A stretch of 57,087 nucleotides of DNA from a virus. Its lineage: Duplodnaviria > Heunggongvirae > Uroviricota > Caudoviricetes. The notes below the pieces were generated by a model. That model was not told where the DNA came from. It searched no databases and saw only the letters and a program-made list of their open reading frames with translations. A program made the position numbers and the translations under genes. Of this stretch, positions 46,534-52,966 are shown piece by piece. Each line of letters starts with the position of its first letter. Positions within the stretch are counted from its first letter, which is position 1. The stretch is taken from positions 1-57,087 of IMG/VR virus record IMGVR_UViG_2561511241_000005; one strand, 5' to 3'.

Positions 46534-49500
46534 ATGAGTAGCGGCGGCGGCAAAGCCAAAACACCAACATTATTAAACGATAACCTGTATCATAAACAGT
46601 TTTATCGTGTTTTAGACATTCTCAGCGAGGGGCCGATATACGGCCCGGTAAACCAGAAAGCGCCATTAAACAGCGTAATGCTTAATGACACACCTGTAAC
46701 TGACGCGAACGGAAATACATCAATCCCGGGGATTAGTATAGCCTGGCGCAATGGCACGGCTGACCAATCGCCGATTAATGGTTTTAACGCTATCGAATCA
46801 ACAGTTATTGTCAACGCAAAGGTAACTCACGATACGCCAATAATCAGGACTGTTTCAGATCCAAACGTTAACCGCGTAAGGCTGAATGTTGGCGTTGATG
46901 CTCTCGTTCAGTCAGATGATAAGGGCAATCAATATAACACGTCAGTCATGTTAATGGTTGATGTTAAGCCATCATCATCATCTACGTGGTCGCTGGTTAA
47001 AAACATTACAATCGGGCCTGGTAAACAGAGTGGTGAATACCTTGAAGCTCACGTTATCAACGCGCCGGATGAAAAGCCGTTTGATATTCGCGTTCGTCGC
47101 GTAACGCCAGACAGCAAAAGCGATCTTCTTCGTAATGATACGCGGTGGAGCAGTTACAGCGAGATAATCGACGATAACCTGTCTTACCCTCATACCGCTG
47201 TAGCTGGCGCGGTAATTGACCATGACCAGTATACTGATACTCCTACCCGCACCTATCACCTGCGTGGGCTGATTGTTGATGTGCCGGACAACTATAACCC
47301 TGAAACGCGCGCGTATTCCGGTTTATGGCTTGGTGGCTTTAAAAAAGCGTATACCAATAACCCTGCATGGCTTTTCCGGTATCTGGTTAAAAATGAACGT
47401 TTCGGACTTGCTCGCCACGCTGGTTACATTGACGTTGACGACGGCGCATTATATACGCTTTCTCAATACTGTGACCAGTTGGTTGATGATGGCTACGGTG
47501 GCCTTGAGCCTCGCATGACGCTTAACGCTTACATCACAGAGCAAATGAGCGCACGCGACTTACTGGACAATATCGCCGGGATGTTCAGGGGTATCGCATT
47601 ATGGGACGGGCAACGCCTTACCGTGATGATTGATGCACCACAAGACCCGATCGCCACCATTACAAATGCAAACGTCGTTGATGGCGAGTTTACTCGTTCA
47701 AGTATCGCCCGCGCAGAATGCTACAACGCAGTGATCGTATCATGGACTGACCCGGAAAACGGATGGGAGCAATCAAAAGAGTATGTGGCAGACGATGAGC
47801 TGATCGCCCGTGATGGTTACAACGAAACCACGTTAGAGGCGTTCGGGTGCACATCACGCGGGCAAGCATACCGCGCGGGCAAGTGGCTGATAGAAACAGC
47901 AAAACGCGAGCCGTCAAAATTCACGTTTAAAATGGCCCGTGACGCGATTCACTTTACGCCAGGGGATATTATCGAGATACTCGACAATAACCGCGCAGGC
48001 GCTCGTTTAGGCGGTCGCATCGTGGCGAACAATGGCAAGGTGATAACGGTCGATAAGGTTGATTCGGAATACATCACCGCAGGCGATACCATTAGTTTGC
48101 TTGATAGTGATGGCAAATTTAAGAAACACCAGATCACCGGGGTGAGCGGAAACAAAATCACACTGGCGGCGGCCCCGTCATGGATTCGAAACGGCACTGT
48201 TTTTGCTGTATCGACTGAATCTGCAAAACCTGTTCTGTGTCGAATTATCAGCGTGGCAGAAACAGAAAATAATAGCGTGTACACCATCGAGGCCGCACAG
48301 CACGACCAAAACAAGCAAGCTGTAGTCGATGAAGGCGCAATCTTTGAGGTCAACAACGACACGCTTAATCACTTCCGCGTGCCGAACATTGAAAACCTGA
48401 AGGTGTTAAATGTTGGTTCTGAAACTGTTCAATGTCGCGCTACATGGGAAACACAGACGACAACGCATCGCCTGACCTTTGAGATCCGCGTATATAACGA
48501 CGAAGGCCGCGTGGTGGCAGCTTATGAAACAACGAATTACCGCTATGATTTTTATGGCCTCGACGCTGGCAGCTACACGCTTGGTATTCGCGGGCGTAAT
48601 GACACTGGCATGAAGGGTGCGGAAAGTATTGTGGATCTGGTTATTGGTGCGCCAGCGGCCCCGATTGGAGTCAATTGGGTTTCCGGCGTCTTCCAGGCAA
48701 CGGTATATCCGATCAGCAAAACAACCCTGACCACTGATACAGCATACGAGTTTTATTACTCAGGTGAAAACCAGATCACAGACCCATCAAAAGTAACCAC
48801 GCTGGCGCAATTCACCGGGCGCGGATACCAATGGACTTTTGGCGGCATGAACACGGGCCATAAATATTACGTTTATGTGCGCACGCGTAACGCTTTCGGT
48901 GTGTCAGACTTCGTTGAGGCATCAGGCAAACCTACAGAAAACTTCGACGAAATCAGCGACTACGTGATGAAGGATGTCATGGAGTCAGAACAGTTTAAGG
49001 ACATGATTGGCGATATTAAAGATCTTGGCGACCGTGCCGACCTTATCGAAAGCGCTACCAATGACCTTAAGACTGCTACTGACAACCTCAAAACTGCAAC
49101 TGATAACCTGACAAACATCACTGACGAATTGAGGGTTGACACGGACAACCTGACAAACATCACTGACGAATTGAGGACTGATACGGACGGCCTAATCACA
49201 GAAACTGGGGCCATAAAAGCTGACACGGACACACTGAAAAAAGAAACGGAAGATCTCTATAAAAAGGTTGAGGAAAACGCCGACGATATTGGACAGCATG
49301 AGGCAAGAATAGATTCTCTTGAGGTATCTAGCGAAAAAGTTGGCAGTGAACTGGCGCAAGCAAAAGCAAGCCTGCAAAACGCGTCATTGGCGCTTATCAA
49401 TAACTCACTTGCACAGACCAACACGCGGGTTACTCTCACCGCTCAGTACAAGAAAGGTAGGACAGAAACGAAGGCCGAAATTGACCGCATTGACAACGTT

Positions 49501-51576
49501 ATTGCTGAAGAGAAAAAGGCAACGGCTGAATCACTGAAAACCATCACGGCAGAAATGAACACGATGGATTCTAACCTCAAAGGTCAGATCTCAAACGTGG
49601 AACACGCAGTGGCTGACGAGGCCAGCGCCCGCGCTGAAGCCATTAACGGTGTGAATGCTTCAATAGGCAATCTCGACAAGAAAACCGACGCCAGCATCAA
49701 TAGACTTGATCAAGCTATTGCAGACGAAACGAACGCCCGCACACAGGCAGTCAGTGACGTTAACGCGAGTATCTCATCGCTCGACAAGAAAACAGACGCC
49801 AGCGTTAAACGCTTGGATCAAGCAATAGCAGACGAAACCAGTGCAAGAACTGAAGCTATCAGCAGTGTTAACGCCTCAATAAACAGCATTGACACTAAGG
49901 TTACAAGCAACGTAACACGTATTGATAAAGCCATCGCAGACGAAACGAAGGCACGCACAGACGCGATCAGCGGCGTCAAAGCAAGTATTGACACACTTGA
50001 AGGTAACACCAATTCAGAAGTTAAACGCCTGGACCAGGCAATTTCTGACGAGGCCAGCGCACGCAGCCAGGCGGTGAGCGATGTTAAAGCGTCAATAAGC
50101 AATCTTGAAAGCAAAACTGACGCAAGTGTTTCCCGTCTCGACAAGGCTATCGCTGACGAAACACAGGCAAGAAGCGCTGCAATAACAGATGTTAAGGCTG
50201 ATTTGACAACGCTCGAAAACAGCACAAACGCCAGCGTCAAACGACTTGATCAGGCGATTGCCGACGAATCAAGCGCACGCGCTGAAGCAATCTCAGGCAT
50301 TAACGCAGAGATCGGCAGCATTGAAAACAACGTTGACAAAAACAGCGATGATATAAATCAGACCAAAGCAAGCCTGCAAAACGCTTCGATTGCGCTTATT
50401 AATAACTCAATCGCTCAAACCAACACTCGCGTTACCCTTACGGCCCAGTACAAGAAAGGTCGCAAGGAAACAAACGCGCAGATTGATCGTATTGACAGCG
50501 TTATCGCTGAAGAGAAAAAGGCTACAGCCGAAGCAATTGGCGTGGTAAAAGCATCGATCACGGATCTCGACAAGAAAACCAACGCCAGCGTTTCACGTCT
50601 CGATAAGGCCATTGCAGACGAAACCAACGCACGCAGCGAGTCAATCAGCGGTGTTAACGCAAGCATTAACACGCTTGAAAGCAACACAGAATCAGAGGTT
50701 AGCAGACTGGACCAGGCAATTGCTGACGAGGCAAGCGCCAGAGCACAAGCCATCAGTGGCGTGAATGCGTCAATTTCAACCCTTGATGGCAAAGTTACAA
50801 GCAACGTGACCCGTATCGACAAGGCCATCGCTGACGAAACGAAGGCCCGCACTGACGCGATAAGTAGTCTTAACTCATCGCTTACCAGTACGATTAATTC
50901 GAAAGTATCTGAAGTATCCACAGCACTTTCTACGCATGAAGCATCAAGCGCGGAAAAATTCAACCAGATCTCAGCGTCTTTCGAAGCGGTAAACTCAAGC
51001 ATCACAGAATGGTCGCAGACCATGACAACGGCGGACGAGGCATTATCAACCAAAATTGATCAGCTGACAGTGACCGTTAACGGGAACACCACGGCGATCG
51101 AGACAACATCTAAAGCGTTAACCGACTTCAAAGGTAACGTTGATGCGTCATTGTCAATCAAGATTGCCACCGACAACAACGGCATGAAATACGCAACAGG
51201 TATGTCACTTGGCCTGACTGGTAGCGGTACTAACGTTCAATCGCAGTGTATTTTCCTTGTTGACCGCTTCGTGTTAATGACTGCGGCAAACGGCACATAT
51301 ACAACGCCTTTCTATGTGTCTAATGGTGCAATGTATGTGAAAGAAGCGTTTATTAAAGACGCCTCGATCACTAACGCGAAAATAGGTTCATACATCCAGT
51401 CAAATAACTATGTTTCCGGCAGCACTGGCTGGAAACTGGATAAATCAGGGACGTTTGAAAACTATGGCGCGGTAAGTGGCGAAGGTGCAATGAAATTAAC
51501 TAATACCACTATCTCGGTAAAAGACGGCAACGGGCGTTTACGCGTACAAATTGGTAGGATTACAGGATCATGGTAG
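46534..51576 (+). CDS. Central tail fibre / host specificity protein J-like with long repetitive coiled-coil insertion
   Basis: 1680 aa; N-terminal 800 aa align with lambda J (LSEGPIYGPV, FGCTSRGQAYRAGKWL); internal 36-aa repeats. Confidence 0.9.
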   Translation: MSSGGGKAKTPTLLNDNLYHKQFYRVLDILSEGPIYGPVNQKAPLNSVMLNDTPVTDANGNTSIPGISIAWRNGTADQSPINGFNAIESTVIVNAKVTHDTPIIRTVSDPNVNRVRLNVGVDALVQSDDKGNQYNTSVMLMVDVKPSSSSTWSLVKNITIGPGKQSGEYLEAHVINAPDEKPFDIRVRRVTPDSKSDLLRNDTRWSSYSEIIDDNLSYPHTAVAGAVIDHDQYTDTPTRTYHLRGLIVDVPDNYNPETRAYSGLWLGGFKKAYTNNPAWLFRYLVKNERFGLARHAGYIDVDDGALYTLSQYCDQLVDDGYGGLEPRMTLNAYITEQMSARDLLDNIAGMFRGIALWDGQRLTVMIDAPQDPIATITNANVVDGEFTRSSIARAECYNAVIVSWTDPENGWEQSKEYVADDELIARDGYNETTLEAFGCTSRGQAYRAGKWLIETAKREPSKFTFKMARDAIHFTPGDIIEILDNNRAGARLGGRIVANNGKVITVDKVDSEYITAGDTISLLDSDGKFKKHQITGVSGNKITLAAAPSWIRNGTVFAVSTESAKPVLCRIISVAETENNSVYTIEAAQHDQNKQAVVDEGAIFEVNNDTLNHFRVPNIENLKVLNVGSETVQCRATWETQTTTHRLTFEIRVYNDEGRVVAAYETTNYRYDFYGLDAGSYTLGIRGRNDTGMKGAESIVDLVIGAPAAPIGVNWVSGVFQATVYPISKTTLTTDTAYEFYYSGENQITDPSKVTTLAQFTGRGYQWTFGGMNTGHKYYVYVRTRNAFGVSDFVEASGKPTENFDEISDYVMKDVMESEQFKDMIGDIKDLGDRADLIESATNDLKTATDNLKTATDNLTNITDELRVDTDNLTNITDELRTDTDGLITETGAIKADTDTLKKETEDLYKKVEENADDIGQHEARIDSLEVSSEKVGSELAQAKASLQNASLALINNSLAQTNTRVTLTAQYKKGRTETKAEIDRIDNVIAEEKKATAESLKTITAEMNTMDSNLKGQISNVEHAVADEASARAEAINGVNASIGNLDKKTDASINRLDQAIADETNARTQAVSDVNASISSLDKKTDASVKRLDQAIADETSARTEAISSVNASINSIDTKVTSNVTRIDKAIADETKARTDAISGVKASIDTLEGNTNSEVKRLDQAISDEASARSQAVSDVKASISNLESKTDASVSRLDKAIADETQARSAAITDVKADLTTLENSTNASVKRLDQAIADESSARAEAISGINAEIGSIENNVDKNSDDINQTKASLQNASIALINNSIAQTNTRVTLTAQYKKGRKETNAQIDRIDSVIAEEKKATAEAIGVVKASITDLDKKTNASVSRLDKAIADETNARSESISGVNASINTLESNTESEVSRLDQAIADEASARAQAISGVNASISTLDGKVTSNVTRIDKAIADETKARTDAISSLNSSLTSTINSKVSEVSTALSTHEASSAEKFNQISASFEAVNSSITEWSQTMTTADEALSTKIDQLTVTVNGNTTAIETTSKALTDFKGNVDASLSIKIATDNNGMKYATGMSLGLTGSGTNVQSQCIFLVDRFVLMTAANGTYTTPFYVSNGAMYVKEAFIKDASITNAKIGSYIQSNNYVSGSTGWKLDKSGTFENYGAVSGEGAMKLTNTTISVKDGNGRLRVQIGRITGSW
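49105..49188 (+). repeat. 42-bp perfect-to-near-perfect tandem duplication inside J
   Basis: aacctgacaaacatcactgacgaattgagg(g/a)(t/c)tga(c/t)acggac twice. Confidence 0.8.
49577..50890 (+). repeat. Array of about 11 in-frame 108-bp (36-aa) repeats plus a duplicated 170-bp block (49363-49533 and 50364-50532)
   Basis: Repeated LDKKTDASVxRLDQAIADETxARxxAISxVNASIxx units visible in translation and DNA. Confidence 0.8.
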
Positions 51577-51584
51577 AATTAAGG

Positions 51585-51610
51585 GGCCGACTTGTTCGGC
51601 CTCGGTTTTT
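51585..51610 (+). terminator. Rho-independent terminator after J
   Basis: GGCCGA-cttgt-TCGGCC hairpin followed by TTTTT. Confidence 0.55.
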
Positions 51611-51627
51611 ATTAATGAGGTGTAATT

Positions 51628-51939
51628 ATGGCTACTTTCGGCATTGCAACATGGGACGCCAACGGAAACGCTAATAACTATGGGATCAAACCTTCCGTCG
51701 TGGTTGGTTATATTTCCCTATCTTCCGGGCAAGTGTCCGGCACGTATAATTTTACAGTTCCTACAGGATGTAAATTATCTTATGCCATGACGCTTGATCA
51801 TGGCACAACATCAACGACGCGCAGAAAGATCAGCATTTCAGGTGGCACCGTTTCCATTTCCTCAGCAGGGAATACAGTAGGCGCTAATATATGGCCCGCG
51901 TCACAGTGTGAAATTGTTATATTTGCGGAGGTGGCTTAA
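51628..51939 (+). CDS. hypothetical protein, single copy of MATFG domain
   Basis: 103 aa; N-terminus MATFGIATWDANGNAN. Confidence 0.5.
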   Translation: MATFGIATWDANGNANNYGIKPSVVVGYISLSSGQVSGTYNFTVPTGCKLSYAMTLDHGTTSTTRRKISISGGTVSISSAGNTVGANIWPASQCEIVIFAEVA

Positions 51940-52571
51940 TGGCAACTTTTGGCGCTTATCTGCTTTTAAGTAACGGCAATGTATTTGTCACGCCCGACGC
52001 TACGCCTATGTGCCTTTACACAAGACAGCAAATATCTTGTCCATCAACGCAAAACACATCAAAATACATTACAGTCCCAACAAATAAGCCTGTAATGGTA
52101 TTTGTAAAGACAAGTATAGGCGGTGTTACAGCAAGCGTTAGCAGGGCTAACTCTGGACAAATACTTTGCGCTTTTGGTAGAGATGTCAACAATACCTATA
52201 CTGCAACTGTATATGTATTTTCTATTTTTTCTCCCCCCCTCCCCAAATGGGGTATGGCTATATGGAATTCATCGGGTGAGCTTGTTTTGACAAATGAATC
52301 AAGAATATTAACTGACATCATCACGGTGGGTTCTCCGGGTAATGGAGGCGGGATAAATATAGATCAGACACTTTCAGGATCATACGCAATTTGCCCGCAA
52401 TTGTTGGGCGCGGTTGTTGGGCAAGGTTCAGCATCGATTTATGCTGCCGCATACTATAACGGCAGCAAAACAAGGATCTATGGTGTTACGGCTGGTGGCG
52501 TATATAATCCTACTGGCTACATAAACCACGGTAACGCCATAACCGCCATTAAAACCGATGCCTATGATTAA
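51939..52571 (+). CDS. hypothetical protein with two copies of the MATFG domain and internal T6/C7/C4 homopolymer tracts
   Basis: 210 aa; MATFGAYLLLSNGN... and internal ...WGMAIWNSSGEL...; poly-C at 52231-52244. Confidence 0.5.
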   Translation: MATFGAYLLLSNGNVFVTPDATPMCLYTRQQISCPSTQNTSKYITVPTNKPVMVFVKTSIGGVTASVSRANSGQILCAFGRDVNNTYTATVYVFSIFSPPLPKWGMAIWNSSGELVLTNESRILTDIITVGSPGNGGGINIDQTLSGSYAICPQLLGAVVGQGSASIYAAAYYNGSKTRIYGVTAGGVYNPTGYINHGNAITAIKTDAYD

Positions 52572-52807
52572 TTCAGTTCCGGGCAATCCGTTTTATTGAA
52601 GTGGTCAACGCTTACCCATTGGAAGTTAAACGGATACCCGGCCTTAACCATTTTATGACCGCCAACATCCGCGACACCGAAGACTGCAACCGCATACTCA
52701 TTACCGCCAGTTTGATAAGTTGCCATGCATTCACGTTTCGGCATATCAGCGCAACCAACCAGACCAGCGACCATTGCAGCGATAGCGATATTTTTAAAGC
52801 CTTTCAT
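52568..52807 (-). CDS. Small lipoprotein (possible Cor-like superinfection exclusion protein)
   Basis: ATG 52805-52807 with GGAGGG RBS; signal peptide MKGFKNIAIAAMVAGLVGC with lipobox; opposite strand between J and tail fibre. Confidence 0.55.
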   Translation of the reverse strand: MKGFKNIAIAAMVAGLVGCADMPKRECMATYQTGGNEYAVAVFGVADVGGHKMVKAGYPFNFQWVSVDHFNKTDCPELN

Positions 52808-52966
52808 TGTCTTACCCTCCATTGTTAAGTTGGTTGTAGTATCCATAAACAGCTTTTTAACAACATTGACATAAATCAATAAATACATTTTGTGCGCGTC
52901 AAAAATGTAACATAGATCACAAAATGGTAGAATTATTCCGTTAATTAACATAATGGAGTCATTGCG

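Follow-up and report, generated by a model that had tools for sequence, protein, structure and literature searches.

The window analysed here is the whole 57,087-nucleotide stretch of the virus record IMGVR_UViG_2561511241_000005, and it carries the tail region of a lambdoid prophage adjoining the chromosomal gene abgT. Our subject is a pair of short open reading frames (ORFs), ORF1 (103 amino acids, aa) and ORF2 (210 aa), which lie between the gene of a J-like central tail fibre and cor, the gene of a superinfection-exclusion lipoprotein. An earlier note on this DNA, made from the letters alone, had delimited both genes correctly in coordinates and frame (51628-51939 and 51939-52571); it had also proposed that they share a domain, that a homopolymer tract in ORF2 is a site of phase variation, and that the products serve in receptor binding or exclusion. 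We found that the locus is an already known receptor-specificity cassette in an ordinary prophage copy. The two proteins probably form a module of a phi80/T1-type tail tip that is dedicated to receptor recognition, directed at FhuA and, as we suggest, docked on J through a repeated motif. The features of the locus and its surroundings are listed below, where pLDDT (predicted local distance difference test) refers to the confidence of AlphaFold models and AF2 to AlphaFold2.

46534..51576, + strand: J-like protein of 1680 aa, central tail fibre / tip attachment protein (Pfam domains FNIII-A_GpJ, Phage-tail_3, Ig_J, Ig_J_second, PF09327)
51583..51612, + strand: terminator-like hairpin and T-run in the J–ORF1 gap (pattern scan; RNA fold -18.4 kcal/mol, z -3.0)
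51628..51939, + strand: ORF1, 103 aa, small beta-sandwich protein of phrog_557 (E 3.7e-29; AF2 model)
51628..51693, + strand: motif segment 1, ORF1 residues 1-22, MATFGIATWDANGNANNYGIKP (family conservation; lowest-pLDDT part of the ORF1 model)
51939..52571, + strand: ORF2, 210 aa, two-domain 'hand-like' protein of phrog_425 (E 3.4e-57), candidate receptor-binding protein
51939..52004, + strand: motif segment 2, ORF2 residues 1-22, MATFGAYLLLSNGNVFVTPDAT (pLDDT <50, yet highly conserved)
52225..52244, + strand: pyrimidine tract T6-C-T-C7-T-C4, codons 96-102 (proposed slippage site, judged incidental)
52230..52304, + strand: motif segment 3 at the interdomain junction, ORF2 residues 98-122, SPPLPKWGMAIWNSSGELVLTNESR (pLDDT <50; most conserved stretch of the family)
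52568..52807, - strand: cor, superinfection-exclusion lipoprotein, 79 aa from M49 (NF047972 lamb_exclu_cor, phrog_1119, lipobox LVGC)
52967..55492, + strand: side tail fibre whose C-terminal part is an S74 intramolecular chaperone (Pfam PF13884; PHROGs of tail fibres)
55642-57087: abgT, chromosomal gene of a p-aminobenzoyl-glutamate transporter (98-99% identity to E. coli abgT)

The cassette between J and cor

The match of ORF1 to phrog_557 covers residues 3-101, while that of ORF2 to phrog_425 extends over the full length of the protein and brings 60 homologues; a tblastn search located homologues of ORF1 in 345 phage records. Among T1-like, Dhillonvirus and phi80/HK-type phages, the phrog_557 and phrog_425 pair always stands between a J-like gene and a Cor gene. 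The synteny J, ORF1, ORF2, cor was detected in three E. coli prophages, in T1-like phages (Drexlerviridae), in Dhillonvirus, phi80, HK225, HK75, mEpX2, ES18 and Klebsiella phages, and in prophages of 13 enterobacterial genomes (Buttiauxella, Kosakonia, Enterobacter, Citrobacter and others). These 13 relatives were recovered by an alignment-based scan of genome contigs, whereas a single-protein query of the same contigs returned none.

This arrangement is that of the FhuA-type cassette, with the same J, phrog_557, phrog_425 and convergent cor in the same order and orientation and with the same stop/start overlap, and ORF2 shares 45-67% identity with its copies in phages and prophages. Unlike the other FhuA-type loci, the present one belongs to an E. 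coli-like prophage with an unusually long J (1680 aa, with 36-aa repeats), and the N-terminal domain of its ORF2 is a 13-residue-longer variant common only to a few prophages (P0001, P0002 and P0005). The locus downstream of gpJ has been assigned to receptor specificity (Maffei 2021, PMC8594841), and FhuA is the receptor of PeterMerian, JakobBernoulli and LeonhardEuler (PMC8594841 S5 Table), all of which carry homologues of both ORFs. The cassette is also present in T1, HK022, N15, ES18 and phi80, all FhuA phages (PMC13164509, in which Wietzorrek 2006 is cited for the FhuA-type locus); another paper treats J itself as the receptor-binding protein (RBP) and is uninformative on ORF1 and ORF2 (PMC10373560). 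Families and locus match this known receptor-recognition pair, which bears out the relation to receptor binding at the tail tip that the earlier note had suggested.

The layout of the genes also indicates how the pair is expressed. ORF1 and ORF2, both on the + strand, meet in a TAATG stop/start with a one-base overlap that is conserved, and in distant relatives the stop of J overlaps the start of ORF1 as well (TGATG). These overlaps, together with the strand layout, place the expression of the pair with that of the tail genes; cor, by contrast, is convergent, lying tail-to-tail with ORF2 so that the stops of the two genes overlap by 4 nt. The hairpin in the J–ORF1 gap (8 bp, 6 of them GC, followed by GGTTTTTATT) is situated between the J stop and the ribosome-binding site of ORF1. 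It is kept in close relatives and replaced by a different stem in the same place in PeterMerian, and distant relatives have the TGATG overlap instead. This hairpin may act as an attenuator, reducing the dosage of the genes downstream, or set the stoichiometry of J and RBP.

Could the two proteins instead be membrane-associated partners that help Cor to block FhuA, that is, accessories of superinfection exclusion? We regard this as quite unlikely. It would agree with the PHROG names of the families ('outer membrane protein' as well as 'membrane associated protein', in the category 'moron'), with the strict co-occurrence with cor in FhuA phages, and with the assumption made in PMC13164509, where no structural homologues of the two proteins were found and an exclusion role was guessed. 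However, neither ORF1 nor ORF2 has a signal peptide, a lipobox, or a transmembrane or hydrophobic segment (maximum Kyte-Doolittle(19) 1.0-1.1); the N-termini, MATFGIATWD and MATFGAYLLL, contain no signal, and the AlphaFold models of both proteins are soluble beta-sandwiches (AF2 pLDDT 85.7 for ORF1). Further points against accessories are that the pair sits on the J strand, with translational coupling to J in distant relatives, whereas the orientation of cor is convergent, that strictly lytic phages keep the pair at the end of the tail genes, and that the fold matches that of a proven RBP (see below). The exclusion function considered in the earlier note belongs to the neighbouring cor, whose product scored 52.8 bits against NF047972 lamb_exclu_cor (cut-off 31), matched phrog_1119 and has the lipobox LVGC. 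The program-made ORF of cor (52568-52951, - strand) is 127 aa long, and both the Cor homology and the lipoprotein signal (MKGFKNIAIAAMVAGLVGC) start at M49; the size annotated in relatives is 79 aa, and the extra 48 codons ahead of M49 are probably not translated.

Searches beyond these families added little. Pfam and NCBIfam scans gave no match for ORF1 or ORF2 (Pfam E up to 1), and sequence and profile searches of the PDB returned nothing meaningful. Exhaustive HMMER searches matched residues 6-35 of ORF1 with Cna_B-repeat adhesins of Gram-positive bacteria (P0076, P0091 and P0115) at up to E 2e-16; the string 'AYDANG.AYKYEV(KE)' occurs 11-22 times in these matches, and we rejected the adhesins as relatives, the similarity being a repeated chance match. 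A Foldseek comparison of ORF1 with BFVD yielded weak matches only, including a 105-aa protein of Pseudomonas phage 98PfluR60PP that is discussed in PMC12309495. The metagenomic fragment P0108 runs from the J C-terminus in frame into the ORF1 N-terminus (…RLTGCSDMAYGIQTWDASG…); it was rejected as Rosetta-stone evidence, being a single short metagenomic fragment that may represent an assembly error. In P0105, residues 1-53 of an ORF1 homologue are joined to sequence of the side fibre, as though a deletion had removed ORF2 and cor and left this remnant.

Two observations concern the surroundings of the pair. The J-like protein has 1680 aa against 1172 aa in T1, and the extra length is a long alpha-helical insertion, chiefly around 49000-51000, built of ~36-aa repeats (D-x-A-I-A-D-E-x-x-A-R...); in the J gene, tandem repeats finder reported repeats of 21/42 nt at 49064-49188 and, at 49672-49874, a period of 108 nt. 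The prophage ends just past the side tail fibre, its last gene, and the flank (55493-57087) holds abgT; a related prophage in E. coli MFDS1019527 borders mppA, not abgT.

A recurring motif and its possible modules

Both proteins start with MATFG, and ORF2 contains KWGMAIWNSSGEL at residues 103-115. This 'MATFG' element is a conserved motif that follows the pattern aromatic-G-h-x-h-x4-G over ~20 residues; ORF1 has one copy of it and ORF2 two. An important question is whether a complete domain recurs together with this motif, as was held in the earlier note, which counted three copies of a shared MATFG domain. BLASTP aligned 14 residues of ORF1 and ORF2 (E 0.039) and nothing more. Profile-profile comparison with HHalign (41 relatives of ORF1 and 24 of ORF2) connected ORF1 with the C-terminal half of ORF2 at P 3.2e-5 over 13 columns (the N-terminal motif of ORF1 pairing with motif segment 3) and with the N-terminal half at P 0.0027 (probability 11%, 79 columns), and the comparison of the two halves of ORF2 with each other was not significant. 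Since significance was reached for the short motif alone, between ORF1 and the C-terminal half of ORF2, triplication of the domain is not proven by sequence alone. Thus, the threefold recurrence can be retained, but the similarity is statistically real for the short motif and not for the domain as a whole.

Indirect support for a common fold of ORF1 and the halves of ORF2 is provided by the AlphaFold models. In the model of ORF1, strands are predicted at residues 15-17, 24-31, 38-41, 48-56, 65-71, 74-81 and 94-102, and in that of the N-terminal half of ORF2 at 15-17, 24-34, 40-45, 52-58, 65-71, 74-79 and 87-96; the first two short strands recur at +100 in the C-terminal half. As far as these models can be followed, three copies of a motif-plus-sandwich module across ORF1 and ORF2 are plausible, though not proven. 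The motif segments are the lowest-confidence parts of the monomer models, yet the best-conserved parts of both families: five of the seven columns conserved at at least 90% in ORF1 lie in its motif segment (Fisher p 0.005), and the two segments of ORF2 are likewise enriched in conserved columns (p 1.5e-5).

The RBP of Oekolampad/Bas18 (bas18_0025, DUF6453/PF20051; PDB 9rpt, 9rpw and 9rqi), hereafter RBP_Oeko, offers an instructive comparison. It too has an exclusion lipoprotein alongside, but it is a single polypeptide, is encoded on the strand opposite to J and binds LptD, not FhuA. Pfam gave no match of ORF1 or ORF2 to DUF6453 (PF20051), HHalign against a 31-member alignment of this family gave P about 0.05, and none of the comparisons of ORF1 and of the N- and C-terminal halves of ORF2 with three DUF6453 segments was significant. 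With no detectable sequence or profile similarity, the two proteins therefore do not belong to the Pfam family of RBP_Oeko. At the level of structure, the ORF2 model has the same fold as the solved RBP 9rpt_C. Residues 1-25, 113-142 and 206-234 of RBP_Oeko are missing from the cryo-electron microscopy (cryo-EM) density (bioRxiv 10.1101/2025.07.07.663478). These missing segments are ~100 residues apart and contain the same G-x7-G type of motif (family consensus, in order, GAGILIDYNDG, NAGLLVANSTD and GTGITMTNxxGQ), and they hold 31 of the 49 columns conserved at at least 90% in the 31-member alignment (Fisher p 2e-9). Both the resemblance of the ORF2 fold to that of an experimentally proven RBP and the coincidence of the motif segments with RBP parts that are disordered off the phage support the interpretation of the pair as an RBP.

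A second comparison is possible with the BtuB-type locus of KarlJaspers/Bas06 (bas06_0024/0025/0026; L026 5655-6815, minus strand), which contains three matching genes. Its 204-aa protein is a homologue of ORF2 (BLASTP 7e-7) that has the two motifs and likewise ends in ...KYD, its 91-aa protein is a homologue of ORF1 (HHalign 95.5%), and the third gene encodes a lipoprotein. The locus differs in that the whole unit is inverted relative to J, the lipoprotein gene belongs to the same operon, and the receptor is BtuB. In a 2026 preprint (bioRxiv 10.64898/2026.04.02.716166), AlphaFold3 models support locus-encoded RBPs, and the FhuA, BtuB, LptD and YncD RBP families are called unrelated; judged from sequence comparison, the homology with the KarlJaspers proteins contradicts this claim for the FhuA and BtuB families.

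The pyrimidine tract at the interdomain junction

Another important question is whether the tract at 52225-52244 could make ORF2 phase-variable. The tract described in the earlier note as T6-C7-T-C4 is real, although it reads T6-C-T-C7-T-C4, and it encodes I96-F-S-P-P-L-P102. Slippage in the T6/C7 runs would bring the C-terminal domain of ORF2 into or out of frame and thereby create phage subpopulations with the full-length protein or with one of ~115 aa. The position of the tract fits such a switch, as the C7 run sits exactly at the interdomain junction, and a -1 or +1 slip would yield a product of 116 or 113 aa that comprises the N-terminal module only and is near the size of ORF1.

To address this issue, the junction was compared among 22 related loci and one metagenomic contig. 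The set was drawn from three E. coli prophages, T1-like phages, contigs encoding 95%- and 91%-identical proteins, four viral contigs and 13 enterobacterial genomes, and from a variable-gap pattern search in metagenomes and viral contigs; a search of complete E. coli genomes gave three copies only, with ~84% identity, and no near-identical alleles for comparison of the tract. At the position of the tract, the relatives nearest in sequence (91-95% aa identity) have TTTTTCCCCCACCCCTCCCC, TTTTCTCCCCTTCGCTCCCT, TTTTCCCACCTTCGCTCCCT and TTTTTCCCCAAACCCTCCCC, all of the same length and in frame. Across the whole set, the longest homopolymer at the junction is at most 5, the runs are interrupted by A, T or G, and no length variants of the tract were found; the C7 run is private to the copy in the window. 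No frameshifted or off-phase alleles were present among the 22 related genes, all of which are intact (197-225 aa). What is conserved at the junction is the peptide I-[FY]-P-x-x-x-P-x-W-G, which is kept throughout, and not the DNA.

All of these data count against slippage, and so does the fact that this peptide is the most conserved part of ORF2. Moreover, C/G runs of at least 7 are not over-represented, with one observed in the 57-kb window against 2.2 expected under a first-order Markov model of the window. We therefore consider a phase-variable ORF2 highly improbable; the C7 tract is a lineage-specific codon choice, a by-product of coding over a conserved Pro-rich junction with no regulatory role. 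As far as genome comparison shows, its length is invariant in relatives and the genes are a known constitutive component of the tail locus, two results that the earlier note itself had named as speaking against its proposal. A programmed frameshift at T6/C7 giving a product of the N-terminal domain only was likewise rejected, the slippery sequence not being conserved. The likeness to classical contingency loci, such as surface genes of Haemophilus, Neisseria and Campylobacter, is limited to a poly-C run inside a coding sequence for surface recognition, whereas the run here is a short one of 7 that is neither conserved nor length-polymorphic nor over-represented, and no off-phase alleles were found.

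Probable receptor recognition at the tail tip

We propose that ORF1 and ORF2 are late tail genes, expressed along with J, whose products act in the virion. ORF2 would be a two-sandwich 'hand-like' protein and ORF1 a single sandwich, probably acting with ORF2. These types correspond to the 'Ig-like' (~11 kDa, ORF1 type) and 'hand-like' (ORF2 type) proteins of PMC12309495, where the hand-like protein was modelled on the spike tip and FhuA. The receptor is most probably FhuA, because Cor, the cognate FhuA-blocking lipoprotein, is encoded tail-to-tail beside the pair and expressed from the prophage. The same logic is known from T5, in which a separate, monomeric RBP (pb5) sits on a trimeric central fibre (pb4) and is accompanied by an exclusion lipoprotein, the cognate periplasm-side Llp, which blocks FhuA, the receptor of pb5 (PMC9586334).

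Within the proposed module, the sandwiches would carry receptor specificity and diverge with the receptor, while the hairpin motifs would fold only when bound to a conserved partner. This partner would be the trimeric J tip, and the three motif copies may serve to dock the module on the three chains of this tip. The C-terminal Phage_Tail_Tip domain of J (residues 1521-1658) is the presumed docking platform. The last 200 aa of J are 44% identical to J of PeterMerian, an FhuA phage, and 34% identical to J of Oekolampad, an LptD phage; on this sequence evidence, the FhuA and LptD types share homologous C-terminal domains of J. The two genes (313 aa together) could then be regarded as the split counterpart of single-chain RBPs with three modules, such as that of Oekolampad (321 aa).

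This comparison can be extended to a broader proposal, which we offer tentatively. The three G-x7-G hairpin segments would plug an asymmetric pseudo-threefold module onto the threefold J tip, and the FhuA-, BtuB- and LptD-type RBPs would form one superfamily with three 'hairpin + sandwich' modules, present either in a single chain (DUF6453, 321 aa) or divided 1+2 between ORF1 and ORF2 (313 aa).

A different division of labour is also conceivable, in which a homotrimer of ORF1 caps J and binds the receptor or a lipopolysaccharide sugar in the manner of an H-type lectin, while ORF2 is an adaptor, an assembly factor or an alternative cap. The alternative cap, which would lead to two virion subpopulations, is a hypothesis of PMC12309495; the same paper claims that ORF1-like proteins resemble the C-terminal receptor-binding Ig-like domain of lambda gpJ. 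We consider this arrangement unlikely and favour joint receptor recognition by ORF1 and ORF2.

Several points weigh against joint recognition of FhuA by a module docked on J. For E. coli phages, the presence of either protein in the virion is only presumed, the cryo-EM structure of T1 lacks a resolved J C-terminus (PMC11945409), and a paper of 2026 (PMC13164509) assumes that both proteins aid Cor in exclusion. The part played by the motifs in docking is putative. The BtuB-type relative shows that the family is not tied to FhuA alone, and consequently the assignment of the receptor depends above all on cor and the closest relatives that have been characterised (57-60% identity).

What the two 'membrane protein' genes beside cor do is disputed in papers of 2025-2026, which see in them either an RBP or an accessory of exclusion. 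The motif data suggest the position of the fibre-docking interface, which is needed for re-targeting T1/phi80-type phages or for prophage-based receptor prediction. If FhuA-, BtuB- and LptD-type RBPs indeed form one superfamily docked by its hairpins, a general rule for swapping receptor specificity would follow: keep the hairpins and exchange the sandwiches.
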